Notes: generated from the sequence alone by a model not told the origin. A stretch of DNA of 64,000 bases from Candidatus Nanoarchaeia archaeon (GCA_041659245.1 JBAZYQ010000001.1:4912-68911), one strand, 5' to 3'. Numbered from the stretch's first letter, positions 504 through 55,535 are shown. Numbers and translations: made by a program.

Positions 504-1448
504 ATGAAAAACATATTGGTTACAGGCGGAGCCGGCTTTATAGGCAGTCATCTCTGCGAGACGCTTGTGAATAAGGGGCACAATGTTGTTTGCATGGACA
601 ATTTAAGCACGGGCAATAAGAATAATATTTCCCATTTGCATGAAAACTTTAAGTTTGTAAAAGGCGATGCAAATTCAATCGAGGATTTAAAGCCTTTATT
701 TGCTGAAAATAGGTTTAATTCTGTTTTTCATTATGCTGCTCTTGTTGGTGTTGAAAGAACTCTGAAACATCCGCTTGCTGTTCTTAATGATGTTAACGGC
801 ATACAGCATATTCTCAGATTAGCAAAGGAGAATGGCACAAAAGAAGTAATCTATTCATCTTCATCTGAAGTTTACGGGGAGCCCGTTGAAATCCCTGAGA
901 TTGAAGATGGGCATCTGAATGCAAAGCTGCCTTATGCTGTAACAAAGTTAATGGGCGAAAAGCTTATGAGGGCTTATTATGAAGAATTTGGCTTAAAAAC
1001 AGTCTCGTTAAGATTCTTTAATGTATATGGTCCAAAACAGGATTCAAGTCCATATGGATTTGTTGTCGGCATTTTTATAAAACAATTGCTTGAAGGCAAA
1101 AACCCTACCATATTTGGTGATGGCACGCAAACAAGAGATTTTGTTTATATACAAGATAACATCAATGCCGCCTTAAAAGCCATGGATAGCCCCAAATGCG
1201 CAGGGGAATCCATAAATATAGGAAGCGGAAAATCAATAACAATCCTTGAATTGGCAAATACATTGGCAAATATGATTAACAGTAAAATTAAACCTAAATT
1301 TATTGGTACTAACAGGATAGATATCAAGCACAGGCGTCCTAATGTCTCAAAGATGCAATCTCTTTTGGGATTTTATCCGGAATATAAGCTTGAACAAGGG
1401 CTTGCGAAGACAATAGAGTGGTATAAAGAGAAGGGTAATGCTAAATAA
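504..1448 (+). CDS. NAD-dependent epimerase/dehydratase (extended SDR), UDP-glucuronate decarboxylase / UDP-sugar 4-epimerase-like
   Basis: N-terminal TGGAGFIGSH Rossmann motif, DNLSTG, SSSSEVYG, YxxxK (YAVTK) catalytic motif, NVYGP; 314 aa. Confidence 0.8.
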   Translation: MKNILVTGGAGFIGSHLCETLVNKGHNVVCMDNLSTGNKNNISHLHENFKFVKGDANSIEDLKPLFAENRFNSVFHYAALVGVERTLKHPLAVLNDVNGIQHILRLAKENGTKEVIYSSSSEVYGEPVEIPEIEDGHLNAKLPYAVTKLMGEKLMRAYYEEFGLKTVSLRFFNVYGPKQDSSPYGFVVGIFIKQLLEGKNPTIFGDGTQTRDFVYIQDNINAALKAMDSPKCAGESINIGSGKSITILELANTLANMINSKIKPKFIGTNRIDIKHRRPNVSKMQSLLGFYPEYKLEQGLAKTIEWYKEKGNAK

Positions 1449-1573
1449 GTCTAATATTCTTTTTATTAAACATTCTGTTTCTTTTATTGATGGTTAGGAG
1501 AGAGCCCACCCTTATTGATAACATTTAAATACCTATCTTTTAATTCTTAAAACTTAAAGTGGTATCTAAAGAT

Positions 1574-2272
1574 ATGATTGTAAATGTTTGCAATGCGAAT
1601 AAAGAATTAAAGAATTTAGGGCTAGTTATTTTTACTTGGGGCAATGTCAGCGCAATAGATAGGGCCAGAGGAGAAGTAGCTATAAAGCCAAGCGGAGTTC
1701 CATACGATAAACTGCAACCGGAGGATATTGTTGTTGTAGATTTAGACGGTAGAATAATTTCTGGTTCTAAAAAACCCAGTTCAGACACACTAGCTCATTT
1801 GGAGTTGTATAGGCGATTTAAAGGGGTTGGTTCTATTGTACATACCCATTCCGTATATGCCTCTGCTTTTGCTCAGGCAAGAATGCCAATCGCTTGCATG
1901 GGGACAACTCATGCAGATTATTTTTCGGGTCCTGTTCCTGTAACCAGGCTTATGACGAAAGAAGAAGTAACAAAAGATTATGAATTAAATACAGGAAAGC
2001 TGATAGTGGAACATTTTCTGGAAAACAAGCTGGATCCTATGATTATGCCTGCCTGTTTGGTTGCTGGTCACGCACCATTTATATGGGGCAATAGCCCGGC
2101 AGAGGCGGTTCATAATGCAAAAGTATTAGAAACTGTCGCTCAAATGAATCTTTTAACATTGCAGTTAAATTCTAATATAACTGATTTGCCCTCTTTTTTA
2201 TTGGAAAAGCATTATATGCGTAAACATGGCCCTACTGCATATTATGGGCAAAAAAGAGCAAAAAATGACTAA
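1574..2272 (+). CDS. Class II aldolase/adducin-family protein (L-ribulose-5-phosphate 4-epimerase / L-fuculose-phosphate aldolase-like)
   Basis: TWGNVS and HTHSVYASAF motifs typical of the AraD/FucA fold. ATG at 1574; the track's 1559 start is GTG. Stop overlaps the next gene's start. Confidence 0.7.
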   Translation: MIVNVCNANKELKNLGLVIFTWGNVSAIDRARGEVAIKPSGVPYDKLQPEDIVVVDLDGRIISGSKKPSSDTLAHLELYRRFKGVGSIVHTHSVYASAFAQARMPIACMGTTHADYFSGPVPVTRLMTKEEVTKDYELNTGKLIVEHFLENKLDPMIMPACLVAGHAPFIWGNSPAEAVHNAKVLETVAQMNLLTLQLNSNITDLPSFLLEKHYMRKHGPTAYYGQKRAKND

Positions 2273-3101
2273 TCTTATCCCCATGGCTGGTATTGGAAGC
2301 CGTTTTTTAGAAAAAGGATTTACTTTACCTAAACCTTTAATTCCTGTTTTGGGGCTGCCAATGCTCATAAAGGTAATAAGGGATTTGCCCCCTTCTGACA
2401 AATGGATATTCTTAGTGAGAAAGGAGCATATTGATGAGTACCAGATTGATGCCGTAATAAATCATGAGTTACCTGATGCAATTATTATTCCTGTAGCAGA
2501 AACGACTGAAGGGCAAGCATGTACCTGTTTATTGGCGAAAGAGCATATCAACATGGCGGAGCCGCTTTTTATTGCTGCCTGTGACAGCGGTTTTTTATAT
2601 GATCATGAAAAATTTGAAGAATTTAAAAAAGACAAAAATATAGATGCAGTTTTTTTTACTTTTTCAAAACAGAACATTCTGAGAGTCAATCCTTCTGCAT
2701 GGGGCTGGTGTATATTAAATAATGATGGCAAGACAATTAAGAGTATGTCGATAAAAATTCCTATTTCTAAGGATCCTTACTATGATCATGCAATTACAGC
2801 CTCTTTCTTCTTTAAAAAGGCGCAGGACTTTTTTGATGCTGTTTCACTTATGATCAACGAGGATTATAGAATTAACAATGAATTTTACGTTGATTCGGTG
2901 CCAATATTCCTTAATAGAATGGGCAAAAAGACAGCCATATTCGATGTGGACCTTTTTGTAAGCTGGGGCACTCCTAATCAGTTATTTGATTTTCAGAAGG
3001 TATCTTATTTTGTTGCAAATAATCTCAGTCCAAAACTGTTGCCAGAAGAGTATAAGCCTCTTTTTAAATTATGGAAAAAATATATTAAAGGAGTATCATG
3101 A
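2265..3101 (+). CDS. Sugar-phosphate nucleotidyltransferase (NTP_transferase family)
   Basis: MAGIGSRF…LPKPL N-terminal signature of sugar-1-P nucleotidyltransferases. ATG at 2265 overlaps the upstream stop (ATGACTAA). Confidence 0.6.
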   Translation: MTNLIPMAGIGSRFLEKGFTLPKPLIPVLGLPMLIKVIRDLPPSDKWIFLVRKEHIDEYQIDAVINHELPDAIIIPVAETTEGQACTCLLAKEHINMAEPLFIAACDSGFLYDHEKFEEFKKDKNIDAVFFTFSKQNILRVNPSAWGWCILNNDGKTIKSMSIKIPISKDPYYDHAITASFFFKKAQDFFDAVSLMINEDYRINNEFYVDSVPIFLNRMGKKTAIFDVDLFVSWGTPNQLFDFQKVSYFVANNLSPKLLPEEYKPLFKLWKKYIKGVS

Positions 3102-3829
3102 CTGTTTTATTATCTATTGTTGTGCCTTGTTATAATGAAGGAAAAAATATTCCTTTTTTAGTTAAAAGATTCTTAGAAGCGAAAAAAGACAATACTTCTT
3201 CTCAATTGGTGATGGTCAATAATGGCTCAACAGATAATTCTCTTCGCTTAATGCGGCAGTTTGCCGCGAAATATAGCTCAATAAATATTGTTAATATAAA
3301 ATACAATAAAGGATATGGACACGGCATATGGTCTGGAATATCCAAGGCTTCAGGGAAATTTATAGCCTGGACACATGCTGACCTTCAAACAGATATCAAA
3401 GATGCGTTTGTTGCTTATGACCTAATAAAACATAAGATAGATAATAAAACCTGTTTTGTAAAAGGGAAAAGAAAAAAGAGGGCTTTTTTTGATTCTTTTT
3501 TCTCTTATGCAATGTCAATTTTTGAATCAATTGTATTTGGAAGGATAGTTTATGATATAAATGCCCAACCTAACTTATTTCATAGGGAATTTCTTAAACA
3601 AGTACATAATCCTCCACTTGATTTTTCTTTTGACTTGTTTATATATTTAACAGCCTTATATTCAAAACAGAAGATTATACGGTTTCCTGTGGACTTTCCT
3701 GAAAGAATCCATGGGCAATCCCATTGGAATACGGGCATAAGGGACAAGTATAAGTTTATTAAACGGACTATCTCTTTTACATGGGAATTAAAGAGGAGAA
3801 TGAGGAAAAATGATAATAGCCGCACATAG
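3098..3829 (+). CDS. GT2-family glycosyltransferase (polyprenol-phosphate sugar synthase-like)
   Basis: LSIVVPCYNEGKNI…VMVNNGSTDNS…HADLQTD: GT-A fold with DxD-type motifs. ATGA start/stop overlap with the upstream gene. Confidence 0.8.
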   Translation: MTVLLSIVVPCYNEGKNIPFLVKRFLEAKKDNTSSQLVMVNNGSTDNSLRLMRQFAAKYSSINIVNIKYNKGYGHGIWSGISKASGKFIAWTHADLQTDIKDAFVAYDLIKHKIDNKTCFVKGKRKKRAFFDSFFSYAMSIFESIVFGRIVYDINAQPNLFHREFLKQVHNPPLDFSFDLFIYLTALYSKQKIIRFPVDFPERIHGQSHWNTGIRDKYKFIKRTISFTWELKRRMRKNDNSRT

Positions 3830-4421
3830 GGTAAATACAGTGGACATGCTGAAAAAAGTTCCTGTTGAGTATGGTGTTGAAGTGGATGTAAGGGTTGCGG
3901 GTAAAGAACTAATATTGAATCATGAGCCTTATATTGGTGGAGAGCTCTTGAAAGAATTCTTGAGCAACTATCGTCATAGTTTTATCATATTTAATATCAA
4001 GGAGGCCGGCATTGAATCCGACGTTATTAAATTAGCGCAGGACTATAATATAGAAGATTACTTTCTCCTTGATGTAGAATACCCTTTTATTTATCGTGCA
4101 ACAAGAAAAGACATATTCAAAAAGATAGCAGTGAGATTTTCTGAAGCAGAGCCTATTGAATTTGCTTTGGCGCATAAGGGTATGGTCGATTGGGTGTGGG
4201 TGGATACTAATACTATCCTGTCTTTAAATGCAGATGTTTATGCAAGGCTCCATAAAGCTGGTTTTAAAATTGCTTTGGTTTCACCGGATAGGTGGGGCAG
4301 ACCTGAAGATATTTTAAAATATAAAGCTTATTTGACAAAAGAGAAAATTCCAGTTGATTTAGTCATGGTAGATTTGCAATTGGCTCCAAAATGGCTGGAT
4401 TGCAAAGTGCAAGATGATTAG
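3810..4421 (+). CDS. Glycerophosphodiester phosphodiesterase (GDPD)-like protein, divergent
   Basis: IAAHRVNT…VEVDVRV…LNHE resembles the GDPD HR…ExD…HD layout. Weak call. Confidence 0.35.
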   Translation: MIIAAHRVNTVDMLKKVPVEYGVEVDVRVAGKELILNHEPYIGGELLKEFLSNYRHSFIIFNIKEAGIESDVIKLAQDYNIEDYFLLDVEYPFIYRATRKDIFKKIAVRFSEAEPIEFALAHKGMVDWVWVDTNTILSLNADVYARLHKAGFKIALVSPDRWGRPEDILKYKAYLTKEKIPVDLVMVDLQLAPKWLDCKVQDD

Positions 4422-7338
4422 GGAAATACTAAGAGACAGGAAAAACGTTCTATTTAGGTTTGTTACAGTGGGTTCTTTATCCACTATTATCAATGTTCTG
4501 GTTTTTATAATACTAATCCAATTGTTGGATCTGCATTATATTCTGTCCGCTTCAATAAGCTATATATGCGGATTTTGTTTGGGATTTATATTAAATACAA
4601 AGTTTTTGGCTGAATTTCAAAGATTTGAAATAAGAAAATATCTTATCGTATACAGCATTTCTCTCCTCATTCAATTATTATTTATGTTTTCAATGGTAAT
4701 AATGGGTCTCGAGGTATTTATTGCCTTTTTAGTGTCTTTGTTTTTGGGTTCTTTAACAAATTTTCTCGGGATAAAATATTTTGTCTTTGCCAAAACCGCA
4801 TTCATCAAGAAAATAAATTATCTTGTATTCAGGTTCAGATATTTTATTATCTATGTTGTAATTGGCTTAACCTCCATATTGGTGGAGCTGCTTGTAATTG
4901 CCTCCATTGAGAATCTTTTTTCAACTCTATACCTAAAACTTTTCCTTGGATTTATGGTAGGTATGATTTTTAGCTTTGTCCTAAACTTAAAACTGAATTT
5001 TGACATTCCAAAAGAAAAGAGCCTTAGGACCTTCAGATTGTTTGTTTTTATCTCTTTTTGTGCATTTATAATTAATCTATTGCTGATAAAACAAGTATTC
5101 CCTTTATTTGGCTTTGCTAATTATAATTATATTCCTTTAAGATTTATTAGTGCAGGCCTTCTGTTTATGATAACTTATACTCTCCACAGGAGATTTACAT
5201 TTAGGGATGTCAAGCAGGTAGGTATTGCTATTTATTTATCTGATTCTGAGGATATTGGTCTTATATATTCGAAGGTATCAATATACCCTGATTTTTTGCA
5301 TATAGATCTTGTTGATAAGACTTTTAATAAAAATGCGGCAGAAATAGATGTAACAAAGGGTGCAGACATAAATCAGTATTGGCCTTATACAAAAAAGATG
5401 ACTCATATTATGTCAAGGACACCATCCCATTGGATTGATAAGGTGGCTTATTTTAGCGATTATATTATAATCCATTCGGAAATAGATGAAGATGTAGGAA
5501 AATTGATAGCACAAATAAAATCTAGGGGTAAGAAGGCTGGCATTTCTATTATGTACAAAACACCAATTGCGTCAATAATGCCTTTCTTAAAAGAAGTGGA
5601 CTTAGTTCAAATCCTTGCAATAGAAAAACCGGGTTTTTCAAATCAGCATCTGCAGAAAAAGGCGCTGACTAGGCTGCATCAATTGACATTATTAAGAGAT
5701 AAATATAATTTTGAAATCTGTTTTGATGGGGGTTTAAAGCCGACAAATATTCATAAGATTAATGCCAAGTATATTGTTTCCGGTTCTGCAGTATTAAACT
5801 CAAAAAATGTAATTGAAACTATCCACACCATGAAAACAAGCGGGCGTTATTATTTTAATAAGGATGAGGACCTGAAGGCATTTCTGGCGAAATCTATACT
5901 CGATACTCTTAATGCGATAGAATTTGTGAAATCAGGGACTATTGTCGGCTCGTTTGTGGATAAGCCAGGTATTGAAGGGTTAAGTGATGTCGATATAGTT
6001 GTTATTGTGGATAAATTGAACAAATCTAAGTTTGAGCATATTTTAACAAGATTTAAGGAGCTAAAACCAGTAATTGAATTAAATTTTGACAAAAAAGTTT
6101 TAATCAATACATGCTTTGGTCCGCTTAAATTCAATGTTGGAGACAATATTGTTCTCCATTTAATGGTATATGATATTGAAGGACACAAGCTGCATTGCCT
6201 AATGAGCCCTTTTACATGCTATGATTGGCAAAGGTCTGATACTTTTGTAAAAAAGCACATGAGCGAATTGTACGCAATTTGCGGGCTTAGCGTATCTGAC
6301 TTCTTTAATTCCAGGAGAAGCATAAATGATTACATTAAGGATATTGAGGCCAGGCGGATTTCTTATAGGAAATATACTTTTGATGATAATGGGGCTTTAA
6401 GCGAGAAAATTAAATATAAAACTATGAATAATAAGGATATTTTTGAATTTAGTTACCATGTTATGAACTTCCTGATGCGAAATTTTTCGAAGCTTTATTT
6501 CCAAATAAATAAAAATTGGTCTTTTGAGGAAATAATCACTAATTACAGCTTATTATTTAACGAGACGTCGAGTCTCAAATTTTTTAAAAAATTGAAAAAA
6601 TATAAATCTACCAATAGTTTTCCAAAATGGAATAAAAAGCATGAGGCCCAGTTACAGGCATTTTTGCTGCATTTTAAGAAAGGATTTGAATCGATATTCT
6701 TTTTGCATGCAAAACATCTGTTTTTTATCAGGCATCAGCAGTCTTTGTTAAATAAACAAGGATATTTTATCGGACAAAAACTCAATCCCTCTATAACCTC
6801 TATTAATAATTCGCTTTTAATCCCCTTTTCAGATATGAGCATAGAGAAAATTATCTCTTCGCCTGCTGAAAGATGTATTCAAACAGCAGACGCCATTAAA
6901 AAATATACACATCTGCAATTTTCTATTGATGTAGATAAGAATTTACAGGAGATAGATTATGGGTCTGTAGAAGGGGAGGATATTAATTTTCTAAAGAAAC
7001 ATTATCCGGACATTGTAAATGCATGGGCCAATAAGGAAGACCCCTGCTTTCCTGGAGGAGAAAATTATGTTGCTCTTTGCAGAAGGCTAGATGCTTTCAT
7101 TAAAAATTTAAACACAATTCCTCAAAAGAGAATATTGGTATGTACGCATAATGTTTTTTTACGCTGTTTAATTGGCACTATTTGGCAGATACCAGCCCAC
7201 AAATGGCATTTAATAGAAATACCTTTTCTAGAGCCCATTCAAGTTTCCCTTGGTAAAAATGGAAAATGCTTTCTTGATCTCTCAGATGGACAAAAGGAAA
7301 GATATTTAAAGAAGCTTTTTTTATATAATAAGGAGTAA
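4414..7338 (+). CDS. Multidomain fusion: tandem GtrA-like 4-TM domains + ribulose-phosphate 3-epimerase-like TIM barrel + Pol-beta-type nucleotidyltransferase + histidine phosphatase (PGAM-like) domain
   Basis: N-terminal RFxxVG GtrA-like segments, twice. RPE-like blocks: FLHIDLVDKTF, IIIHSEI, ILAIEKPGFSNQ, ICFDGGL, IVSGSAV. NTase: GSFVDKPGIEGLSDVDIVVIV. C-terminal histidine-phosphatase-like FFIRHQQS…SSPAERCIQTA…VCTHNVFLRCL. Confidence 0.7.
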   Translation: MIREILRDRKNVLFRFVTVGSLSTIINVLVFIILIQLLDLHYILSASISYICGFCLGFILNTKFLAEFQRFEIRKYLIVYSISLLIQLLFMFSMVIMGLEVFIAFLVSLFLGSLTNFLGIKYFVFAKTAFIKKINYLVFRFRYFIIYVVIGLTSILVELLVIASIENLFSTLYLKLFLGFMVGMIFSFVLNLKLNFDIPKEKSLRTFRLFVFISFCAFIINLLLIKQVFPLFGFANYNYIPLRFISAGLLFMITYTLHRRFTFRDVKQVGIAIYLSDSEDIGLIYSKVSIYPDFLHIDLVDKTFNKNAAEIDVTKGADINQYWPYTKKMTHIMSRTPSHWIDKVAYFSDYIIIHSEIDEDVGKLIAQIKSRGKKAGISIMYKTPIASIMPFLKEVDLVQILAIEKPGFSNQHLQKKALTRLHQLTLLRDKYNFEICFDGGLKPTNIHKINAKYIVSGSAVLNSKNVIETIHTMKTSGRYYFNKDEDLKAFLAKSILDTLNAIEFVKSGTIVGSFVDKPGIEGLSDVDIVVIVDKLNKSKFEHILTRFKELKPVIELNFDKKVLINTCFGPLKFNVGDNIVLHLMVYDIEGHKLHCLMSPFTCYDWQRSDTFVKKHMSELYAICGLSVSDFFNSRRSINDYIKDIEARRISYRKYTFDDNGALSEKIKYKTMNNKDIFEFSYHVMNFLMRNFSKLYFQINKNWSFEEIITNYSLLFNETSSLKFFKKLKKYKSTNSFPKWNKKHEAQLQAFLLHFKKGFESIFFLHAKHLFFIRHQQSLLNKQGYFIGQKLNPSITSINNSLLIPFSDMSIEKIISSPAERCIQTADAIKKYTHLQFSIDVDKNLQEIDYGSVEGEDINFLKKHYPDIVNAWANKEDPCFPGGENYVALCRRLDAFIKNLNTIPQKRILVCTHNVFLRCLIGTIWQIPAHKWHLIEIPFLEPIQVSLGKNGKCFLDLSDGQKERYLKKLFLYNKE

Positions 7339-7344
7339 ATTCAA

Positions 7345-8793
7345 ATGGTAAAAATATTATTCTTGCAGCAGATATGGTTTCCTTTTCAGGGAGTCATGAC
7401 TTTATCGGCGGCATTAAAGCGGGCAGGACACGAAACTGCAGTTGCAGTCGGAAAAGACGAGAGACTTTTTAAAGAGATTTACGAATTTAAACCAGATATA
7501 ATTGCGTTTCCGGTTATTACCTCTTATAGAAGATTTATGATAGAAACTGTTAAAAAAATAAAGGCTAAGAATATTAAGGCTTTAATTGCAATTGGGGGAT
7601 ATGATGCCTCTTTTTTCCCGCAAATAATAGAGAAACTACCGATTAATGTTTTATGTATTGGAGAAGGAGACGATGCTTTTGTGGAATTTGCGAATGCAGT
7701 GAAAGAGGGGAAGGACTATTCCCATATTAAAAATTTATGGGTTAAGCATAACGGAAAAATTATTAAGAATCCGATAAGGTCTTTTAAAGACCTGAAGAAT
7801 AAGCCCTTCGACGACAGAGATATTTATAGGGATTATGACTCTTATTTTAAAGATATTGAATTTGAGCAAGTGATGGTTGGCAGGGGTTGCCCTTATTGCT
7901 GCTCTTATTGTTTTAATCATAAGTATAGGGAACTTTATGCACCTGTTGATAAGCAATATTGTGCTTTGAGGGATGTTGATAATGTCATAGAAGAATGCTT
8001 AATACTTAAAAATAAATATAAGGTTAAGAATTTATTCTTTAATGATAGTACTCTTGGTTATGATAAAAAATGGATATTAAAATTTCTTAAGGAATATCGG
8101 GAAAGGGTAAATATGCCTTTTTCTATTAATGCTTGTGCAAATGAGCTTACCGAAGATGTATGTAAGGCATTAGCTGATACAAAACAGTGCTATATTATAC
8201 GCTTGGGGCTTGAAACAGGAAATGAAGACCTCAGATTTAATGTTTTAAACAAGAAGATGACAAATAAACAATATATGGACGCAACTAACCTTTTGAAAAA
8301 ATATAAGCTTAAATATTCTATGGCTGTCATGTTTGGGCTTCCGGGAGAAACATTGGCAAATTCTTTTGAAACTCTGGATTTAGCTATTAAACTATCAGAT
8401 AAGAATACTGTTGTTGCTGTGAATATCTTTAAGCCATTTCCCAAACTGAATATAACCGAATATGGGGTTAAGCATGGGTTTTATAAATCTGAACTAATAA
8501 ATGATTCAAACTTGATAGGTGATAATGTTATGAATTTTTTTGAATGTTTTAGGCAAGATGAAGAAGGCAGGGTAATTTTGAATTTATCCAGATTATCCCA
8601 GATATATTTGCATTTCCCTATTCTAAGAAAACTAATCCGGACAAAATTAATATATCGGTCGGATAATGCGATTTATAGGGCAATATGGAAATTTAGCGAT
8701 TATTATTACACAAGCAGGCATCATATTAATGCGTCGCTGCCTTTCTTATTTAAGTATGTATTTAAGCATATGGGTAAAGGGGTAAGGGGATAA
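7345..8793 (+). CDS. Cobalamin-binding (class B) radical SAM enzyme, subfamily 1
   Basis: N-terminal B12-binding-like Rossmann segment (MVKILFLQ…IAFPVITS…IAIGG), then radical SAM cysteine motif RGCPYCCSYC (CxxxCxxC). Paralog of 34555..36090. Confidence 0.85.
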   Translation: MVKILFLQQIWFPFQGVMTLSAALKRAGHETAVAVGKDERLFKEIYEFKPDIIAFPVITSYRRFMIETVKKIKAKNIKALIAIGGYDASFFPQIIEKLPINVLCIGEGDDAFVEFANAVKEGKDYSHIKNLWVKHNGKIIKNPIRSFKDLKNKPFDDRDIYRDYDSYFKDIEFEQVMVGRGCPYCCSYCFNHKYRELYAPVDKQYCALRDVDNVIEECLILKNKYKVKNLFFNDSTLGYDKKWILKFLKEYRERVNMPFSINACANELTEDVCKALADTKQCYIIRLGLETGNEDLRFNVLNKKMTNKQYMDATNLLKKYKLKYSMAVMFGLPGETLANSFETLDLAIKLSDKNTVVAVNIFKPFPKLNITEYGVKHGFYKSELINDSNLIGDNVMNFFECFRQDEEGRVILNLSRLSQIYLHFPILRKLIRTKLIYRSDNAIYRAIWKFSDYYYTSRHHINASLPFLFKYVFKHMGKGVRG

Positions 8794-8824
8794 TCTTAAA
8801 TATAGTAATTGGCTTAATTAGGCT

Positions 8825-9445
8825 ATGGAATATGTTTTTGCCCTTAAACCGGAACCTTGTCTATATAATAAAATAAGAATATTGAAAACTTCTTTAAAAA
8901 AGCAAATGGGAAATCAGTTGTATATCAATGACGAACCGCATGTTACTCTCTGCGTATTGGATTTAGGCGATGATATATCTTTTAAAGATAAGCTCGACTT
9001 TATAATCGGTTCTTTTCGTTCTAAATTTAAAAAAATAAGATTTTCGATAAATGCATGGTCTATTTTTTCTGAGGATCCAGTTACTTCTTGTTCAACTTTA
9101 GTTTGTCGGCTCAATATGCCCGGCAATGTCCTGAATAATCTTCAATCTAAATTATTAAAGGAATTACAACTTTTTCGTACAAAAGACATTGCTTTGCGTT
9201 ATATAAAAGTTAAATTCAAAAATAAAGAATTCAATAACTGCTTGCAGCAATATGGGTATCCATTTATGGGCATGATATGGATACCGCATATAAGTATTGG
9301 CTCATTTGATAAAAAAGCCATTAATAAGGCAATTGAAAAAACAGAAAATAAGTGTCCTATTGGCCTCTATTCTTTTCAATCATTGATTGTTTATAAGCTG
9401 CTTCCATCTGATAAATTAGTTCCGCTATATAAATACCCTTTTTAG
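8825..9445 (+). CDS. 2H phosphoesterase superfamily protein (LigT / cyclic phosphodiesterase-like)
   Basis: Two H-x-T/S-x motifs in hydrophobic context: EPHVTLCVL and IPHISIGSF, about 105 aa apart, in a 206-aa protein. Confidence 0.5.
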   Translation: MEYVFALKPEPCLYNKIRILKTSLKKQMGNQLYINDEPHVTLCVLDLGDDISFKDKLDFIIGSFRSKFKKIRFSINAWSIFSEDPVTSCSTLVCRLNMPGNVLNNLQSKLLKELQLFRTKDIALRYIKVKFKNKEFNNCLQQYGYPFMGMIWIPHISIGSFDKKAINKAIEKTENKCPIGLYSFQSLIVYKLLPSDKLVPLYKYPF

Positions 9446-9448
9446 ATA

Positions 9449-11314
9449 TTAGCCTGTTAGATTATATACAATATACTCTCTATTTTTTGTGATTAGTGGA
9501 AATTCCAACTCTTTGTCTTTATTGAATATTGCATATGAAAAGTGGAACTTTTCTTTTAAGATTTGCAATTGCGTTTCATTGAGTGTAGTATAATACTCGT
9601 TAAGATGTTGATTTTCCCCATAGGTTCTGTCATCCAAGGTGAAATGGTTATTTGTTACATTTATAATACGGATATACCACTCTACCATATACCTGTCATC
9701 TAAAGGTATTGTTTTAAAATCAACAACAATAGCCCTATTGAGGCATAATCTCCATTGCTCTTCATCAGGCGGTGTTAAAAATATAGAATTTATAGGTGTA
9801 TTCTCTTGTGCAAAAAGGCAGATTTCTTTCATTTCCGGTTCAAAATCTGATCTTGCATTTAAAGGTGATATCTTAAGGTCAACAAACGAGATTATTACCA
9901 ATATTGCTATTAAAAGGAAAATAATCTTTTTGTTTTTAGGATATATAATCAAAGCTGAACATAAAAGGTAGATAAAAAAGATTATAAATGCTGGCACCAA
10001 TAGGCTTTTAATCAGGGATATTTTTTCTTGTGAAGTTAAATATCTTAGCAGGGTTGGAAATGTAAAATATAGCAATCCTCCCAAGATAATGGCAATGGCA
10101 ATGCCTGCAAAAAGAAAATATCCTCTGTTTATTTTAATATAATTGTTCTCTTTTAGTTTTATAAAAATAAATATTAATGCCAAGAGAATAAATAAATACC
10201 TTAAGACAAATGTGGCAAAAGAGAATATGAATAATAAAGCAAATAGTTTTAGGGGAATACTTTTGGCACTTGCCCATAGCTCATAAGCTTCATTAAAAAT
10301 TATAATATATGAGACCATGAACATGAAGGCAACAGCCCGGAACATATGAAATAAAGCAAAGGACGAGATTGGAATTATTTCTACAAATATATACCCAGTG
10401 ATAGCATATAAAATGCATATTATATAAGATACATAAAATACAGATTTTTGCTTGAAGTTATTATCTCTTAAAAATAACAATCCCAATACTACCAGAAGTA
10501 TGGTTGCAACAAAAAGACTAAAATCCCAAGAGCTTGGCAGGCAATGCCATGGATGCCTGAATCTGGCAACTATGTGGGTAATCAGGCTCTGGTCTGTAAA
10601 CCTTGAAGAAATTAGCAGGCCTTGGATAAGAGCAGGTGCACCTATTATTATAAAAGATATAGGTTTTATCAAGTAAATAAGATTTGATTTGGTAAAAATA
10701 GGTTTGCGTATGTTAATGAAAATATGTATAAAGTAGTATATTGAGAAACACATAAGTCCTGTAATTGTATGGAATATTGCTGCCAATCCTAATATGGCAA
10801 ATCCGCTTACAGTCTTATTCCGCAGTATAAGGTTTAAGGAAATAAGTGCAAAACACCATGAGATAATATTTGGGGTAAGGATGCTGTCAATAAGATTAAT
10901 GGAACCTAAAAATGATGTTTGATACGCCATGATAAAAAACAAGCTAAATAAGGCTGATTTTGCCTTATTTTTATAAAAATAATCTGCAAGATAGAATAAG
11001 GATAGGGCAATCCCCTGTGTAAACAATAAGGTTAATAAAAAGAAAGTAACTGACAGGCTGCCTATTATTTTATATGTGCAAAGGACAAAATAGTTAAATA
11101 TGGATCTAATATTAAATCCTTCCATTGAATTGGTATACCAGTCATTAACAAGGTAGCTTGTATCATTAATGCGGTACATATTTGGTAAATATTGATTATG
11201 GTTACCGATGCCATAACCGCTATATATGAAGATAAATAGAACTGTGACGCAGATAAAGCAAAATATCTCAAATCTGTATTTTTGCAGTATATTCTTAATA
11301 TAATCAGACTTCAT
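9449..11314 (-). CDS. Polytopic integral membrane protein (~14 TM) with C-terminal soluble domain; possible GT-C-like glycosyltransferase
   Basis: 621 aa. Hydrophobic helices throughout the first ~480 aa, then a hydrophilic C-terminal domain. No specific motif recognised. Confidence 0.5.
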   Translation of the reverse strand: MKSDYIKNILQKYRFEIFCFICVTVLFIFIYSGYGIGNHNQYLPNMYRINDTSYLVNDWYTNSMEGFNIRSIFNYFVLCTYKIIGSLSVTFFLLTLLFTQGIALSLFYLADYFYKNKAKSALFSLFFIMAYQTSFLGSINLIDSILTPNIISWCFALISLNLILRNKTVSGFAILGLAAIFHTITGLMCFSIYYFIHIFINIRKPIFTKSNLIYLIKPISFIIIGAPALIQGLLISSRFTDQSLITHIVARFRHPWHCLPSSWDFSLFVATILLVVLGLLFLRDNNFKQKSVFYVSYIICILYAITGYIFVEIIPISSFALFHMFRAVAFMFMVSYIIIFNEAYELWASAKSIPLKLFALLFIFSFATFVLRYLFILLALIFIFIKLKENNYIKINRGYFLFAGIAIAIILGGLLYFTFPTLLRYLTSQEKISLIKSLLVPAFIIFFIYLLCSALIIYPKNKKIIFLLIAILVIISFVDLKISPLNARSDFEPEMKEICLFAQENTPINSIFLTPPDEEQWRLCLNRAIVVDFKTIPLDDRYMVEWYIRIINVTNNHFTLDDRTYGENQHLNEYYTTLNETQLQILKEKFHFSYAIFNKDKELEFPLITKNREYIVYNLTG

Positions 11315-11436
11315 TTTTTATATTTACAGCGGATAAGTTTATAAATTTACCTAAGAATAGATTATTTTATATAGTTGATTATTATGTTTAACCAAATTAT
11401 TTTTCTAGCATTATCCTTATTTTGGAATATATAACA

Positions 11437-12876
11437 TCAACTGGACTTTTTCATGCTGCTAATCAATGCCATTGCCCCATTTATGTAAACCTTTACCCTG
11501 TCTTTTGAGCCAAGATATTTGAGCTGCCTCAATATAAATTTTGGGCGTAAATAGAAGCTTCTCATTGCATATTTCTGGAGCTCTTTGAGCTCTTCAGCAT
11601 TTCTGCCTTCAGGCATGTAAACAAGCTCCTTGTTTGACCATCCGGCCCATGTTTGATAATTTTCCCATTGGAATGACTTTAGTGTTTTGTCTTTCTTTGT
11701 GATTTCATATAATTTTGTTCCAGGATATGGCACTGTTATAGTGAATTGCACCCAGTCAGGGTCAATTTCCTTTGAAAAACTGATTGTCTGCATGCTTTCT
11801 TCCTTTGTTTCAGAAGGCAAACCGAGCATAAAGAATGCTTTTATCTCGATTCCTGCTTCCCTTGTCCATTTGAATGCATCCCTCACCTGCTGCAGCGTTA
11901 TTCCCTTATCTATCAAATTCAGCAACCTCTGGTTTCCGCTTTCAACGCCGTAATGCATGCTCCAGCAGCCTGCTTTTTTCATTATTTTCAGCAGTTCTCT
12001 GTCAACAAGATTTACTCTTGTCATGCAGCTCCATTCAAATCTCTTGTTTAATCCCAGCCGCATAATCTCATTGCATAATTCAATAACGTGCCCTCTGTCT
12101 ACTGTAAAAGTATCGTCCCTAAATATTATGTCTTTTGCGCCGTAATCATTCAGAAGAGTGTTTATTTCCTCAATTATTCTTTTCACAGAATGCTTTCTGT
12201 AAACTCTTCCGGAAACTTTTGAGCAGTATGCGCATTTGAAAGGGCATCCTCTTGAGGCAAGTATAAGATAGCTTGGAAGCCTTTTGAAGTATGTTGGCGC
12301 CGGAGTATATTTAGCCATTGGCAAAAGATCCCTTGCGGGCAATGGAATGGAATCAATGTCTGTTTTTATCTCACGCGCAGGATTTATCGTTATTTTGCCG
12401 TTATTTCTGTATGCTATGCCTTTTATGCTTTCAAAATGCTTTTTTTCTGAAATTGCGTTAAGCAATTCCACTATTGTGTCTTCAGCTTCCCCGAAGCAGG
12501 CAAAGTCGATGTTCTTGTTTTCTTCGAGGGTTATTTCAGGAAAAACAGTGACGTGAGGACCGCCGGCAATAATCTTTGCTTTTGGAAGTGTCTCTTTTAC
12601 AAGGCTGATTATTTCCTTTGCGCGAAGATACATTGGTGTAAGTATAGACACGCCCACAATATCAGGATTTGATTCAATAATACGTTTTTTTAATTCTTCA
12701 GTGCTGATGCGCACAGCGGCAATGTCCAATATTTCAACGTCAGCCGCTTTTGCTTCTCTTATTACCGCAGCAAGATAAGCCAATCCCATTGGCTCGCACA
12801 TAGGCCCCACCTTGCCAAGATATTTACCGTATCTTTCATCAAGCGTAAGCCCTGGCTGAATAAGCATAATTTTCAT
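11437..12876 (-). CDS. Cobalamin-binding (class B) radical SAM enzyme, subfamily 2
   Basis: MKIMLIQPG…MGLAYLAAV…IVGVS B12-binding-like N-terminus; SRGCPFKCAYCS CxxxCxxC. Start moved to the internal ATG at 12876 (the track extends to 12933). Confidence 0.85.
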   Translation of the reverse strand: MKIMLIQPGLTLDERYGKYLGKVGPMCEPMGLAYLAAVIREAKAADVEILDIAAVRISTEELKKRIIESNPDIVGVSILTPMYLRAKEIISLVKETLPKAKIIAGGPHVTVFPEITLEENKNIDFACFGEAEDTIVELLNAISEKKHFESIKGIAYRNNGKITINPAREIKTDIDSIPLPARDLLPMAKYTPAPTYFKRLPSYLILASRGCPFKCAYCSKVSGRVYRKHSVKRIIEEINTLLNDYGAKDIIFRDDTFTVDRGHVIELCNEIMRLGLNKRFEWSCMTRVNLVDRELLKIMKKAGCWSMHYGVESGNQRLLNLIDKGITLQQVRDAFKWTREAGIEIKAFFMLGLPSETKEESMQTISFSKEIDPDWVQFTITVPYPGTKLYEITKKDKTLKSFQWENYQTWAGWSNKELVYMPEGRNAEELKELQKYAMRSFYLRPKFILRQLKYLGSKDRVKVYINGAMALISSMKKSS

Positions 12877-12995
12877 TAGGAACTGAAAGTGTGTTTCATA
12901 TTTAAATAGTTTCGGGATAATAGTGGCAAACATTTAGTAATATATAATTTAAAATCAAATAGCCTTAGAGGATCAAAACATAATAACTCTTTTAT

Positions 12996-13871
12996 TTATT
13001 TTTTCATATCCGCTAAAAATCCAAAGAATAATATTTGGAGACCAGAAATTATTAATAATATGCATAAGACTGTACTTGGCAGATGCCCTACTTTGCCTGT
13101 TTTAAAGAATAGCATGGTAAGCCAAAGTCCAAGTAATAATCCTGTGATAATAAAACTGCCTCCAATGCTCCCAAAGAATTTAATGGGGTTATAATCCCTT
13201 TGCACTCTAAGGATATTTATCCATGCTTTAAATGCGTATCCGAATGGATTCTTTATTAATTTGCTTTTTCCTTCCCTGGCAGAAAAATAGGTTGGGATCT
13301 CTTTCACCTTGAAATCTTCCGTTACTGCCCTTAGTATTTGTTCTTGGGTATAAGTATGGTTTGATATAATATCTAAAGATGCAACTTTCCTGTTAAATGC
13401 TCTAAAACCAGTCTGGCAATCGTTAATTTTATATTTTAATATCTTGGATATGGCTCGGGAGAAAGCGCGATTTCCAATCTTTTTTAATAAAGGCATCTTT
13501 TCTATGCCTCCGGCAAACCTGTCTCCTAATACCAAATCATAGCCCTTCTCAACTTCGTGTATTAATCTTGGAATGTCTTTTGCCTGGTATTGCCCGTCTG
13601 CATCTGTATGCACAATAATATCTGCGCCCATCTTCAGGCTTTTTTTAATTTCAGTTCGAAATGCCTCAGCCAGTCCCCTATTAGTAAAATGCGAAAAAAC
13701 AAACGCTCCTGCTTGTTTAGCAAGACTTTCTGTTTGATCTGTGCTTCCGTCATTTACAACAAGAAGTTTATAATTATATCTCTCCTTAGCCATTACATCC
13801 TTTATGTCTTTAATCACATGACCTATTGTTTTTGCTTCATTGTATGCCGGGATGGTAATTACAACTTTCAT
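12996..13871 (-). CDS. GT2 polyprenol-phosphate sugar synthase (Dpm1/ArnC/GtrB-like) with C-terminal TM anchor
   Basis: VVITIPAYNEAKTIGHVI…LVVNDGSTDQT…HTDADGQ, then a C-terminal hydrophobic segment. Confidence 0.85.
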   Translation of the reverse strand: MKVVITIPAYNEAKTIGHVIKDIKDVMAKERYNYKLLVVNDGSTDQTESLAKQAGAFVFSHFTNRGLAEAFRTEIKKSLKMGADIIVHTDADGQYQAKDIPRLIHEVEKGYDLVLGDRFAGGIEKMPLLKKIGNRAFSRAISKILKYKINDCQTGFRAFNRKVASLDIISNHTYTQEQILRAVTEDFKVKEIPTYFSAREGKSKLIKNPFGYAFKAWINILRVQRDYNPIKFFGSIGGSFIITGLLLGLWLTMLFFKTGKVGHLPSTVLCILLIISGLQILFFGFLADMKK

Positions 13872-13894
13872 ATTAAATCATCATTTTTGGGGTT

Positions 13895-15064
13895 TTATAA
13901 ACCTTTTGCAGAGTACATCTTAAATTCCCCAATCTGTTTTATCAGGCTGAGATTAAGCATATGCTTGGTATAAATATAGTCAACATGTTCACTATAGCTT
14001 TCCAGATTGCCGACTATAATTTTATCATTAAGCCAAAAGCCAATTATACTATTTGTTCTATTCCCTATATCGCGTTCATATATGCCTGTTTGGTTCAATT
14101 TTGAGATAATAGCCTCATCACGTTCATCTAGCAGATATACGGAATATTGCGGATCATATTGATTCATAAACATGCCTATTTGTACTTGGGGTCCTGCTGC
14201 CCAATATACCCTGGTATTGTATATTGTTACTGAATAAGCCAACAGTGAGATTAGAATAAAGAAAATAATTGAAAAATAAAATATGCGCTTGGTATGAGGG
14301 TATATCATCTTGTATAGTATATAAAATATCAATCCCAATATGGCTGCAAAAATAATCTGTGATATGAAAGAGGAATTAAATACTAATCTTATTAGTTCGG
14401 CTAAAATTCCCAGCCAGGACAAGGATAAATTATTAACCGGAAACAAAGGAAATAAATATAAGACTGAAGAGCAAAGAAGTAATGATACGATAATGAAAAT
14501 AGATTTCATATTAATTTTTGTAGGCATCTTTTCAAAGGCAATTATTCCTATTATTATGATTAAAGGCAATACTGCTTCGATATACCTTCCTATAGGTCTG
14601 CCTAATAACCAATTAGAATAGATTCCAACTTGTGCAGCTGCATTATGATTTGAGGCAATAAGCAAGGTTACAAATATGCATAGACCTGAAATAACCAACA
14701 AATAAGGGTATTTAGCTTTTGCTTTCAGCAGATTTAAAAATCCAATGGAATAAATGAAACCAGAACTTATTATCAAATAGCCGAGAGATATTAAAAACCA
14801 AAGCAGAATTGTGCCTATTTTCAGTCCATGGCTTGTTTCAAGACTATAGTACCCTCCTGAAACTGAATTAATTGAAAATCCAAATAAAAGCCCGTTTCGT
14901 ATCAGCCATAAAACGATGAATGGGATGGCTGAGATAATAAATACAAATGTTTTTTTGGCATTTAATTTAAAATCTTTGTCTTCCCAGGCCTTAAACGTAT
15001 AAGCCCCAATACCTACAAAAAGCAAAGCAATGCCGCTTACTTTTGTTAAGTATGATAAGCCCAC
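13895..15064 (-). CDS. GT-C (PMT/ArnT-like) glycosyltransferase, C-terminal portion; likely one gene with 15106..15600 interrupted by a frameshift
   Basis: Polytopic membrane ORF with no ATG start (GTG in the track). Its frame stays open upstream to 15236, overlapping the end of the upstream ORF in another frame. Confidence 0.5.
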   Translation of the reverse strand: MGLSYLTKVSGIALLFVGIGAYTFKAWEDKDFKLNAKKTFVFIISAIPFIVLWLIRNGLLFGFSINSVSGGYYSLETSHGLKIGTILLWFLISLGYLIISSGFIYSIGFLNLLKAKAKYPYLLVISGLCIFVTLLIASNHNAAAQVGIYSNWLLGRPIGRYIEAVLPLIIIIGIIAFEKMPTKINMKSIFIIVSLLLCSSVLYLFPLFPVNNLSLSWLGILAELIRLVFNSSFISQIIFAAILGLIFYILYKMIYPHTKRIFYFSIIFFILISLLAYSVTIYNTRVYWAAGPQVQIGMFMNQYDPQYSVYLLDERDEAIISKLNQTGIYERDIGNRTNSIIGFWLNDKIIVGNLESYSEHVDYIYTKHMLNLSLIKQIGEFKMYSAKGL

Positions 15065-15105
15065 AGATAGCCCTGCAATAATCGGCCATTTGTATCCTTT
15101 TGAGG

Positions 15106-15600: not shown

Positions 15601-15666
15601 TATGAATTGCCTTAAACCTCCGGCATTATATTCTAATATGGATTATTAGAATGTAATAGAAAACAT

Positions 15667-16863: not shown

Positions 16864-16930
16864 AACTTAAAATTTATTTTGAGGGTATATAAATATAATG
16901 AATTTCTAAATTTAATTTATATAAAATTCC

Positions 16931-18139: not shown

Positions 18140-18216
18140 AATGAACTTTTTAAGGATATTTAAGGATTATGGTTCTATACTGTAGAATACAATTTTTGCA
18201 TATTTAATTTTCCCCT

Positions 18217-19284: not shown

Positions 19285-19439
19285 AAATTCAATCTTAAGC
19301 TATACTTCCCTTTAAGTTAGTATAATCCCTAATGGATTATATGGCTTAATTCTCCCCACCTAATAATTAATTAACATTGAAGCAAATGTAATTATGGCGA
19401 AGAAACATTTATAAAGCTTAAATCTATATCATTCCTAAA

Positions 19440-20867: not shown

Positions 20868-20923
20868 GGCAAATCCGATCATCAGAGTGGGGCATCATAC
20901 ATAAATCTTTTTAAGCTAATATA

Positions 20924-22435: not shown

Positions 22436-22487
22436 TGATTTAGGACAATATAGATATATTTTTAAATGCTTAGTCTTATTTAATTCT

Positions 22488-54059: not shown

Positions 54060-55535
<1,476 letters not shown>

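Follow-up and report, generated by a model that had tools for sequence, protein, structure and literature searches.

Why should a single archaeal protein combine two membrane units with an epimerase, a nucleotidyltransferase, and a phosphatase, and does such a protein exist outside one assembly? The question is raised by an archaeal, DPANN-like window (the whole 64,000-nucleotide stretch of DNA that was analysed), in which an initial annotation claimed a 974-aa single ORF fusing four protein families. This ORF is present as described at 4414..7338 on the plus strand, begins with ATG, and has the claimed four-family architecture, as judged from Pfam matches and conserved catalytic residues. Stop-to-stop ORF mapping of homologous loci displayed a single intact reading frame, and the same frame is intact in homologues of 40-48% identity from independent assemblies, which excludes a frameshift or an assembly join. 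The single-ORF architecture is kept at 34-48% identity across many independent assemblies and one isolate genome. Single-ORF versions are encoded at no fewer than 12 independent loci, that of the cultured Halobaculum sp. P14 among them, which rules out an artefact. In bacteria such as SAR11, Bacteroidota, and Planctomycetota, it is split into a GtrA-RPE protein (RPE, ribulose-phosphate 3-epimerase) and a nucleotidyltransferase (NTase)-phosphatase protein, and these split forms are widespread. The further claim that the architecture is undescribed stood only in part: no functional description of the fusion or of its gene cassette was found in the literature searched, but public databases hold the architecture from dozens of genomes under automatic labels, for example "GtrA family protein" or "histidine phosphatase family protein".

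The N-terminal part contains two 4-TM domains of the GtrA/DPMS type, assigned to 4447..4797 (+, aa ~12-128) by Pfam PF04138 and a hydropathy scan and to 4819..5205 (+, aa ~136-264) by a second PF04138 stretch. The family, entitled "GtrA/DPMS transmembrane domain" in Pfam, was matched in the two stretches with 69.2 bits vs a cut-off of 26.1, best at aa 15-125 (E 4.6e-19), and the scan of aa 1-265 gave about 2x4 hydrophobic segments; the fusion is thus a GtrA/DPMS member by its profile match above the gathering score and its four TM helices per unit. The distribution of K/R residues suggests an N-in/C-in topology, with the enzymes then cytoplasmic. Domain 1 is missing or separately encoded in some homologues, and in nearly all homologues, whether bacterial or archaeal, domain 2 is the GtrA copy joined to RPE, RPE being the domain most constantly fused to GtrA. 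Two GtrA units are retained even when split, for example in Pelagibacter (locus L049).

A TIM barrel resembling RPE follows at 5209..5838 (+, aa 266-475; PF00834) and a histidine phosphatase domain of branch 1 ends the protein at 6718..7338 (+, aa 769-974 plus the stop; PF00300), both matched above the Pfam gathering score. The Ribul_P_3_epim match (aa 293-460) reached E 1.9e-24 with 86.6 bits vs 21.1, and among solved structures human RPE (3ovp/3qc3, E 3e-17) comes nearest. Among 21 homologues, H296, D298, H331, and D438 as well as the phosphate loops PG.S.Q, DGG, and SGS are invariant or nearly so; the profile, the metal/catalytic H-x-D, H, and D residues, and the phosphate-binding loops all place the domain in the RPE family. 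It missed the housekeeping RPE equivalog and subfamily cut-offs (NCBIfam TIGR01163, 88.5 vs 212.6; PRK05581, 104 vs 165), and is a divergent family member whose substrate may differ from that of housekeeping RPE. The His_Phos_1 match (aa 769-937) reached E 5e-26 with 92 bits vs 21.7, and R773, H774, R820, E846, and H912 are conserved across homologues, consistent with the profile and the R-H ... R ... E ... H set of the branch 1 superfamily. Its nearest solved structures are fructose-2,6-bisphosphatase (1e-9) and CobC (1e-8), and the equivalog cut-off of the alpha-ribazole phosphatase CobC (TIGR03162) was missed at 88.2 vs 162.9.

Between these two enzymes lies an ANT-like NTase at 5839..6717 (+, aa 476-768) with a Pol-beta NTase lobe and a helical lobe. 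It had been called minimal, but is an NTase plus helical domain of ~290 aa. The segment of the window protein falls below the Pfam cut-off (PF01909, 16.8 bits vs 21), and PF01909 was matched in 17 of 18 homologues with a best E of 4.4e-6; together with the G-S ... D-x-D ... D pattern and the NTase fold, this places the domain in the Pol-beta-type superfamily. Its closest folds are small-molecule O-adenylyltransferases. No PDB match was found for it at the sequence level, and it is only 10-12% identical to the aminoglycoside and lincosamide O-nucleotidyltransferases ANT(3'')(9)/AadA, AAD(9), ANT(4'), and LinB. Neither sequence-level membership nor the aminoglycoside substrate of the ANT(3'')(9)/AadA family applies to it, and unlike these enzymes it is not a resistance gene and is always fused to a histidine phosphatase. 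In the helical lobe, R634 is invariant and R635 and R652 are nearly so, the columns of all three being invariant in an 18-sequence alignment; these conserved basic residues suggest an anionic substrate.

The gene cassette of the fusion is embedded in a glycan island with a GT2, a GT4, a UDP-glucose dehydrogenase, a Wzx-like flippase, and an STT3 fragment. An L-ribulose-5-phosphate 4-epimerase of the AraD subfamily (1559..2272, +; NCBIfam PRK08193, 336 bits vs a cut-off of 257) is followed by a sugar-1-phosphate nucleotidylyltransferase (2226..3101, +), whose true start is probably the ATG at 2265 by comparison with homologue starts. The latter was assigned by a weak PF12804 match and a PDB profile search (NDP-sugar pyrophosphorylase 4evw, HddC, GlmU, IPCT, and ManC) and also draws MobA/IspD-like NTP_transf_3 matches. 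Next comes a GT2 glycosyltransferase resembling polyprenyl-phosphate sugar synthases (3098..3829, +; PF00535), whose nearest solved structures are ArnC, GtrB (sll0501), and the Pyrococcus furiosus dolichol-phosphate mannose synthase (PfDPMS) and in which a hydropathy scan found no TM segment. This GT2 had been placed directly upstream of the fusion, but a 203-aa gene (3810..4421, +) sits between them. Its product belongs to no Pfam family and is a minimal phosphodiesterase of the GDPD/PLC-like superfamily by its TIM barrel and H-R ... E-x-D ... H pattern. More than 2000 database members of this 203-aa family carry no annotation.

Downstream of the fusion, a B12-binding radical SAM enzyme (7345..8793, +; PF02310 plus PF04055) is an accessory insert in the operon, followed by a 2H phosphoesterase (8825..9445, +). 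The PF13563 score of the latter, 25.9 bits, is slightly below the cut-off of 27; the family call was repeated in homologous loci, the PHVTL and second H-x-S/T motifs are present, and the PDB profile matches, although weak, all fall within the 2H superfamily. On the minus strand, 9449..11314 encodes a polytopic membrane protein with DUF6798 (PF20604), a candidate extracytoplasmic glycosyltransferase. In a crude hydropathy scan it showed 16 hydrophobic segments that overlap in part, read as ~12 or more TM helices, and its position is taken in other loci by YfhO-like or PMT_2-like proteins. No Pfam or PDB link connected it with GT-C enzymes, and hhalign found no profile similarity to the PMT_2/YfhO-like partners (probability 2.6%); its invariant N-D-W after TM1 would be compatible with the acidic first-loop motif of GT-C enzymes.

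These genes recur far beyond the window. Among 32 non-redundant loci with at least 5 kb of flank on each side, the NTP-transferase and the GT2 were found in 32, the GDPD-like and 2H genes in 31, and AraD in 27; the radical SAM gene lies near the fusion in just 5. Halobaculum sp. P14 carries a compact same-strand 7-gene operon in the order fusion, 2H, AraD, NTP-transferase, GT2, GDPD-like, and DUF6798, and in DPANN loci the fusion is surrounded by the same set of genes. The cassette is common to Archaea and Bacteria, many of the latter aquatic, with conserved composition, and its components are tied to one another by variable fusion states, namely GtrA-RPE, NTase-HP (HP, histidine phosphatase), HP-2H (in several bacteria), NTase-HP-2H, 2H-NTase-HP, NTase-HP-NTP-transferase (L026), and NTP-transferase-GT2 (L001). 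The membrane-tethered sugar-phosphate processing unit proposed in the initial annotation is consistent with this conserved cassette, and the proposed link to a polyprenol-phosphate-sugar synthase was borne out; a TM-less ArnC/GtrB/DPMS-like GT2 was found at all 32 loci.

A GtrB-like GT2 beside GtrA is characteristic of Gtr-type three-component systems, i.e., GtrA/GtrB/GtrC of Shigella and Salmonella, CsbB-GtcA-YfhO of Firmicutes, and the AglD/J-AglR-AglS-like steps of haloarchaea. The cassette shares with them the ArnC/GtrB/DPMS-type GT2, the GtrA-family 4-TM domains, and usually a polytopic membrane protein nearby. It differs in that the GT2 has no TM helices, GtrA is duplicated and joined to enzymes, and the donor would be not a housekeeping UDP-hexose but the product of seven dedicated activities: two epimerases, two nucleotidyltransferases (the sugar-1-phosphate nucleotidylyltransferase included), and three phosphoesterases. 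In PfDPMS, a GT2 catalytic domain and a GtrA-like 4-TM domain share one polypeptide; its catalytic and interface part (5mlz) is where the window GT2 aligns, the fusion carries PF04138, and together the GT2 and the fusion look like a split DPMS. Unlike in PfDPMS, the TM domain of the cassette is on a separate polypeptide, duplicated, and joined to three unrelated enzymes. The GT2 would presumably interact with the fusion protein.

The fusion is probably the membrane-anchored core of a cassette making a polyprenyl(dolichyl)-phosphate-linked pentose for outer-face glycosylation, and the system is best read as Gtr-type polyprenyl-phosphate-sugar glycosylation with a novel pentose supply module drawing on pentulose-5-phosphates. 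In the reaction order and with the sugar identity that we infer, the RPE domain and AraD would fix the stereochemistry of a pentulose-5-phosphate from central metabolism in the cytoplasm, and the ANT-like NTase, histidine phosphatase, GDPD-like phosphodiesterase, and 2H phosphoesterase would convert it to a sugar phosphate. The sugar-1-phosphate nucleotidylyltransferase would then form an NDP-sugar, and the TM-less GT2 would transfer the sugar to polyprenyl phosphate, with the paired GtrA/DPMS-type domains as its membrane and lipid-binding partner and/or flippase. Flipping of polyprenyl-phosphate sugars is unproven even for the prototype GtrA (PMC11127046). Finally, the polytopic membrane transferase (DUF6798, YfhO-like, or PMT_2-like) would pass the sugar onto a surface glycan.

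The cassette contains neither a ketose/aldose isomerase nor a kinase, and the route to the anomeric phosphate is for this reason a construction built to use all conserved genes. In speculative form, an acyclic ketopentose-5-phosphate would be O-nucleotidylated at a hydroxyl adjoining the future anomeric centre, loss of the 5-phosphate would let the furanose ring close, the GDPD-like enzyme would transesterify the phosphodiester to a 1,2-cyclic phosphate, and the 2H enzyme would open this ring so that the anomeric phosphate remains. The last step is modelled on the 2H cyclic phosphodiesterases that convert ADP-ribose 1'',2''-cyclic phosphate to the 1''-phosphate. This speculative order of steps matches the N-to-C order of RPE, NTase, and phosphatase, and the four steps together would lead to a sugar-1(2)-phosphate without a kinase. 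That such kinase-independent anomeric phosphorylation, by O-nucleotidylation, 5-dephosphorylation, GDPD-type 1,2-cyclisation, and regiospecific 2H opening, yields NDP- and polyprenyl-phosphate-activated ketopentofuranoses of the D-xylulofuranose or L-ribulofuranose type is a tentative idea and rather unlikely. If true, it would explain where the ketofuranosyl residues, such as Xulf, in the surface glycans of bacteria and archaea come from. A review of E. coli O-antigens reports no pathway characterised for making an activated Xulf donor and names NDP-D-Xulf as a presumed donor, with its genes located outside the O-antigen clusters (PMC7685785).

Several points count against the favoured lipid-linked pentose reading. 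The reading gives no reason for GtrA to be joined most constantly to an epimerase whose substrate is a soluble central metabolite. No polytopic membrane protein was found nearby in 10 of the 32 loci, including Pelagibacter L049, at a crude hydropathy threshold. The histidine phosphatase fold supports mutases too, and the "phosphatase" of the cassette could be a phosphomutase instead; the 2H-HP fusions could remove the phosphate entirely. 

A pairing of 2H with branch-1 histidine phosphatase is known from the eukaryotic Sts/TULA/UBASH3 proteins and ecdysteroid-phosphate phosphatase (PMC10218301), and it recurs in the bacterial HP-2H, NTase-HP-2H, and 2H-NTase-HP fusions; the comparison holds at the superfamily level, and Sts/TULA/UBASH3 are, unlike the cassette, signalling proteins with UBA/SH3 domains.

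Among the alternatives, an aldopentofuranose (Ribf/Araf/Xylf) donor pathway, suggested by analogy, would have the histidine phosphatase strip C5 of a ribose or arabinose 1,5-bisphosphate-type intermediate and a GT-C use the lipid-linked pentofuranose. Pentofuranose systems combine a lipid-phosphoribose synthase, a 5-phosphatase, a flippase, and a GT-C with auxiliary epimerases that diversify the sugar (Kelly et al. 2024, PMC11127046). The cassette resembles them and the mycobacterial decaprenyl-phospho-arabinose pathway, to which the initial annotation had likened it, in the concept of a lipid-phosphate-linked pentose donor, sugar 5-phosphate removal, diversification by auxiliary epimerases, and extracytoplasmic transfer; GtrA and polytopic membrane proteins are present, and the phosphatase is similar to CobC, whose reaction removes a ribosyl 5'-phosphate. 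The likeness does not extend to the machinery. In those systems a UbiA-type synthase works from PRPP, the phosphatases are of the HAD or PAP2 type, the flippases are MATE or SMR proteins, and DprE1/E2 or ORF13 epimerises the lipid-bound sugar, whereas the cassette would epimerise at the pentulose-phosphate level and activate through an NDP-sugar and a GT2. No UbiA-type phosphoribosyltransferase, DprE1/E2, or ORF13-type epimerase was found among the Pfam-annotated genes at 504..11314, the ten ORFs at 11437..24011, or the Halobaculum operon, and the cassette has no HAD phosphoribose phosphatase; it has a GT2 and a sugar-1-phosphate nucleotidylyltransferase instead. Moreover, RPE and AraD act on ketopentose phosphates, there is no isomerase for a non-ribose aldopentose, and neither epimerase would be needed were ribose the sugar, all of which leaves this pathway unlikely.

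It is improbable that the NTase and/or the NTP-transferase makes an NDP-pentulose or NDP-pentitol (CDP-ribitol-like, 5-phosphate-linked) for a pentose- or pentitol-phosphate (teichoic-acid-like phosphodiester) substituent trimmed or recycled by the GDPD-like, 2H, and phosphatase enzymes. The MobA/IspD-like matches, polyol-phosphodiesters as GDPD substrates, and the YfhO-like partner in one locus fit it, YfhO being a protein that glycosylates teichoic acids. The cassette, however, contains no reductase for a pentitol phosphate and no CDP-alcohol, LicD, or TagF-type phosphotransferase, and the strictly conserved GT2 and the NTP-transferase-GT2 fusion point to an anomerically activated NDP-sugar. 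More doubtful still is that the membrane-tethered NTase acts on the lipid, turning polyprenyl phosphate into an NDP-polyprenol attacked by a hydroxyl of a pentulose or pentose phosphate before the phosphatase strips the 5-phosphate. In archaea a membrane domain of the polyprenyl-phosphate-binding type indeed anchors the NTase, and NTase and phosphatase are almost always fused, but the NTase-phosphatase protein of bacteria lacks a membrane domain, the closest folds of the NTase act on small molecules, and the conserved NTP-transferase, GT2, GDPD-like, and 2H genes would be left without roles. As for an artefact, or an incidental fusion of housekeeping pentose-phosphate-pathway and phosphoglycerate-mutase-like enzymes without joint function, only the unusual length and the usual occurrence of each family alone speak for it. 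The artefact half is already refuted, and the architecture kept at this level of divergence, the conserved catalytic residues, the sub-cut-off housekeeping scores of the RPE and phosphatase domains, and a gene neighbourhood conserved across domains of life make the whole explanation scarcely credible.

If the lipid-linked pentose reading is true, a compact, horizontally mobile gene set lets hosts as different as DPANN archaea, a haloarchaeon, SAR11, Bacteroidota, and Planctomycetota make an unusual lipid-linked pentose for their surface glycans by a dedicated route. The combination of an ANT-like NTase, a histidine phosphatase, a 2H enzyme, and a minimal GDPD-like enzyme was not found for any nucleotide-sugar pathway in the literature searched. 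The cassette is directly testable because it is present in the cultured haloarchaeon Halobaculum sp. P14, and its many fusion and fission states offer a clean case for substrate channelling at the membrane. It would give a function to the 203-aa GDPD-like family, could be relevant to the activation of ketofuranose residues, and would stand next to Leloir donors and PRPP-based systems as a third way of incorporating pentoses.

The fusion gene (4414..7338, plus strand) is one uninterrupted frame of 974 codons that begins with ATG; its first 8 nt are shared with the end of the upstream gene, and a gap of 6 nt separates it from the following gene. Pfam located two GtrA/DPMS transmembrane units within the N-terminal ~265 residues, an RPE domain at residues 293-460 and a branch-1 histidine phosphatase (HP) at residues 769-937, all matching far over the gathering threshold. 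NCBIfam confirmed the domain families, and all equivalog models (RPE, CobC, PGAM and others) stayed well under cut-off, indicating that the domains are divergent members rather than housekeeping enzymes. Domain mapping and the homologue alignment bore out the four-family architecture read in the initial annotation: the protein belongs to the GtrA, RPE, Pol-beta nucleotidyltransferase (NTase) and histidine phosphatase superfamilies and lies outside the housekeeping RPE, CobC and aminoglycoside ANT families. A housekeeping role in the pentose phosphate pathway was rejected, given the low equivalog scores and the conservation of the gene neighbourhood.

In an alignment of 21 sequences, H296, D298, H331 and D438 of the RPE domain, S507, D525, D527 and D587 of the NTase, and R773, H774, R820, E846 and H912 of the phosphatase were invariant or nearly so. 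The closest solved relative of the phosphatase domain was fructose-2,6-bisphosphatase, which works on ketofuranose bisphosphates, with CobC almost equally close. Sequence and profile searches of the PDB with the NTase segment returned nothing useful, and a fold search was needed instead. A hydropathy scan displayed about 2 × 4 membrane helices, with an N-terminus and even-numbered loops rich in Lys and Arg, which suggests that the enzyme domains face the cytoplasm.

A database search recovered 28 clusters of the same architecture with 33-48% identity, named by source as Woesearchaeota or Nanoarchaeota proteins. Such conserved single-ORF homologues excluded the frameshift or assembly join that the initial annotation had proposed to check, and an artefact is thereby refuted; an incidental fusion is very improbable. 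Scanning a single genome for each species gave 60 loci, whose hosts besides DPANN archaea included Thermoplasmatota, a Methanosarcinales MAG, SAR11/Pelagibacteraceae (one genome complete), Pirellulales, Cytophagaceae, Chitinophagaceae, Flavobacteriales, Spirochaetia, Lentisphaerota, Gracilibacteria and others. A full fusion (971 aa), under the NCBI name 'GtrA family protein', is also present in Halobaculum sp. P14, a haloarchaeon in culture. Mapping each domain onto stop-to-stop ORFs showed that the fusion state varies among the full fusion (mostly in archaea), a separate first GtrA unit and a separate phosphatase, and that essentially all bacteria possess two adjoining genes, GtrA-RPE (~350 aa) and NTase-phosphatase (~480 aa). 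Among 1.84 billion representatives, a profile built on the NTase segment reached just 171 at E<=1e-30. Most of these are NTase-phosphatase proteins of ~470-500 aa; of the representatives listed, about eight were full fusions of ~960-1000 aa. The four-module fusion is real but less common than the two-gene unit of which it is a variant, and it is found mainly in archaea; the architecture, first taken as undescribed, is already in databases and split in bacteria, but it is uncharacterised. The window itself is archaeal, since it holds a complete archaeal rRNA operon (54058-58853) with SSU (54058-55534), LSU (55923-58853) and a spacer tRNA-Ala(TGC) (55604-55677). The archaeal-type single ORF was also seen in two CPR-labelled MAGs, at loci L010 (Patescibacteria) and L012 (Saccharibacteria), which points either to horizontal gene transfer among episymbionts of different lineages or to DPANN contigs binned wrongly.

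Among the neighbours, the AraD gene (1559..2272) scored over the AraD-subfamily cut-off, and the NTP-transferase (2226..3101) was closest by PDB profile search to sugar-1-phosphate nucleotidylyltransferases (4evw, HddC, GlmU, IPCT, ManC). Homologues of the latter begin M-x-N-x-IPMAG, matching the ATG at 2265, which is probably the true start within the 2226-2272 region. Translation from there would share 8 nt with the end of AraD, and the fusion overlaps the GDPD-like gene before it in the same manner, which would fit translational coupling of the operon genes. The GT2 (3098..3829) was closest to ArnC, GtrB and P. furiosus DPMS and bears no transmembrane helix. The 203-aa GDPD/PLC-like protein (3810-4421) had no match in Pfam or NCBIfam and nothing useful in PDB sequence and profile searches, so that here too a fold search was needed; its family, which has >2000 database members and no Pfam model, includes P0032, P0038, P0040, P0046, P0060 and P0123. 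Some of the family carry an N-terminal PterinBD-DUF4346 domain (PF14251). The 2H protein (8825..9445) displays an H-x-T motif, and a second H-x-S/T motif is found in most members. For the polytopic DUF6798 protein (9449..11314, minus strand), a candidate extracytoplasmic glycosyltransferase, a PDB search for GT-C relatives found nothing, and an hhalign comparison with the PMT_2/YfhO-like partners at other loci reached a probability of 2.6%.

The cassette was counted by tblastn of the window's proteins against all loci, using the 32 non-redundant loci with >=5 kb on each side. NTP-transferase and GT2 were present in 32/32, the 200-aa GDPD-like protein and the 2H phosphoesterase in 31/32 each, AraD in 27/32 and a polytopic membrane ORF, by a crude hydropathy threshold, in 22/32. 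The GalE-like SDR (11/32) and the B12-radical SAM protein (5/32) are accessory, judging from their low counts. In Halobaculum, a compact same-strand operon unites the fusion, 2H phosphoesterase, AraD, NTP-transferase, GT2, 200-aa protein and DUF6798 membrane protein. This operon lies within 721419-742021 of contig JBNTKB010000001.1 (assembly GCA_051195155.1), at 4292-12449 of locus L006. Further fusions among cassette components were HP-2H (L022, 4456-5712), NTase-HP-2H (L050, L053, L056 and L064), 2H-NTase-HP (L030, 7395-9593), NTase-HP-NTP-transferase (L026, 9071-11398) and NTP-transferase-GT2 (L001, 15831-17369); they span different phyla and would be useful as Rosetta-stone evidence. The cassette of Ca. 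Pelagibacter nBUS_28 (L049, NZ_CP172844.1 707256-725672) comprises AraD, GtrA-RPE, NTase-HP, 2H, NTP-transferase, a free GtrA, GT2 and the GDPD-like protein, so that a pair of GtrA units is kept in fused and unfused arrangements alike. No polytopic membrane transferase lay within 8 kb of it, and its final acceptor step is thus encoded elsewhere or different.

The window's cassette sits within a larger glycan island of GT2, GT4, UDP-glucose dehydrogenase, methyltransferase, a Wzx-like flippase, an STT3 fragment and four B12-binding radical SAM paralogues within 24 kb (7345-8793, 11437-12933 on the minus strand, 19440-20867 and 22404-24011), the first of which separates the fusion from the 2H gene. 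These radical SAM enzymes possibly act in sugar C-methylation. The match of a 164-aa ORF (15106-15600, minus strand) to STT3/AglB is confined to the N-terminal region (PF02516 positions 54-138 of 405), and the ORF may represent either a small paralogue or an oligosaccharyltransferase gene that has been truncated or fragmented. The flanking GalE/UXS-like extended SDR (504-1448) and UDP-glucose dehydrogenase (16931-18139, minus strand) could together provide the UDP-GlcA, UDP-Xyl or UDP-GalA of the base glycan without involvement of the cassette.

On balance, we favour a Gtr-type system whose donor sugar comes from a dedicated supply module. Like Gtr/ArnC-ArnT-type glycosylation, it would form a polyprenyl-phosphate sugar by GT2, handle it at the membrane by GtrA and use it outside by a polytopic transferase. 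RPE and AraD accept only open-chain ketopentose 5-phosphates, so the sugar would be drawn from Ru5P/Xu5P with its C3/C4 configuration fixed before activation, and AraD, missing in 5/32 cassettes, behaves as a diversifier. Both the fusion of NTP-transferase to GT2 and the relatives in PDB indicate that GT2 receives an NDP-sugar whose precursor is an anomeric sugar phosphate. The TM-less GT2 with PF04138 on a separate chain resembles a split P. furiosus-type DPMS, and by this analogy the GtrA pair may bind lipid as the partner of GT2, as well as or instead of acting as flippase.

No kinase, mutase or isomerase is encoded in the cassette. It is conceivable, if unlikely, that the four remaining activities convert pentulose-5-phosphate to the anomeric phosphate, each enzyme used once. 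The ANT-like NTase would O-nucleotidylate the hydroxyl next to the future anomeric centre, and the phosphatase would hydrolyse the 5-phosphate, a removal needed because ketopentose 5-phosphates cannot form a furanose ring. A GDPD/PI-PLC-type transesterification would then yield a 1,2-cyclic phosphate with release of the nucleoside, and the 2H enzyme would open this ring to leave the anomeric phosphate, on the model of 2H cyclic phosphodiesterases, which are known to produce ADP-ribose 1''-phosphate from the 1'',2''-cyclic phosphate. In the fusion, RPE, NTase and phosphatase follow one another from N to C in an order that agrees with these steps. That the system conceals a categorically new activation chemistry is likewise unlikely.

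Several points count against the model. The searches gave no GT-C link for the DUF6798 protein, one third of the 32 loci have no nearby polytopic protein by the crude hydropathy threshold, the model does not account for the constant GtrA-RPE fusion, and the histidine phosphatase fold also serves mutases. HP-2H fusions, a pairing also seen in eukaryotic Sts/TULA proteins, might mean that phosphate is removed altogether. Among the rivals, nucleotidylation of a lipid by the NTase was considered, as was a CDP-pentitol or teichoic-like phosphodiester decoration, which the cassette, having neither reductase nor phosphotransferase, speaks against. The PterinBD-DUF4346 fusions, CobC-like phosphatase and B12-radical SAM genes had raised the idea of a role in a methanopterin or cobalamin loop, which was dropped because the invariant partners are GT2 and GtrA and radical SAM is accessory. 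Another rival is an aldopentofuranose (Ribf/Araf) donor pathway akin to decaprenyl-phospho-arabinose or to the three-component pentofuranose systems described by Kelly et al. 2024 (PMC11127046). The cassette shares their concept but lacks the enzymes that define them, namely UbiA-type PPPRS, DprE1/E2, HAD phosphatase and MATE. The likeness is therefore conceptual; the membrane-tethered sugar-phosphate idea of the initial annotation gains from the conserved cassette, whereas its decaprenyl-phospho-arabinose analogy does not hold beyond the concept.

The literature searched for the sugar-supply module, the domain combination, DUF6798, combinations of cassette components and xylulofuranose biosynthesis contained no description of this system, and the RPE and phosphatase fusions mentioned in an archaeal fusion survey are unrelated to it. 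What would be new relative to Gtr-type systems is the dedicated module as the source of the donor sugar. A review of E. coli O-antigens lists NDP-D-Xulf as a presumed donor, with genes outside the O-antigen clusters, and describes no characterised pathway by which an activated D-Xulf donor is made (PMC7685785), which leaves room for a ketofuranose product of the cassette.
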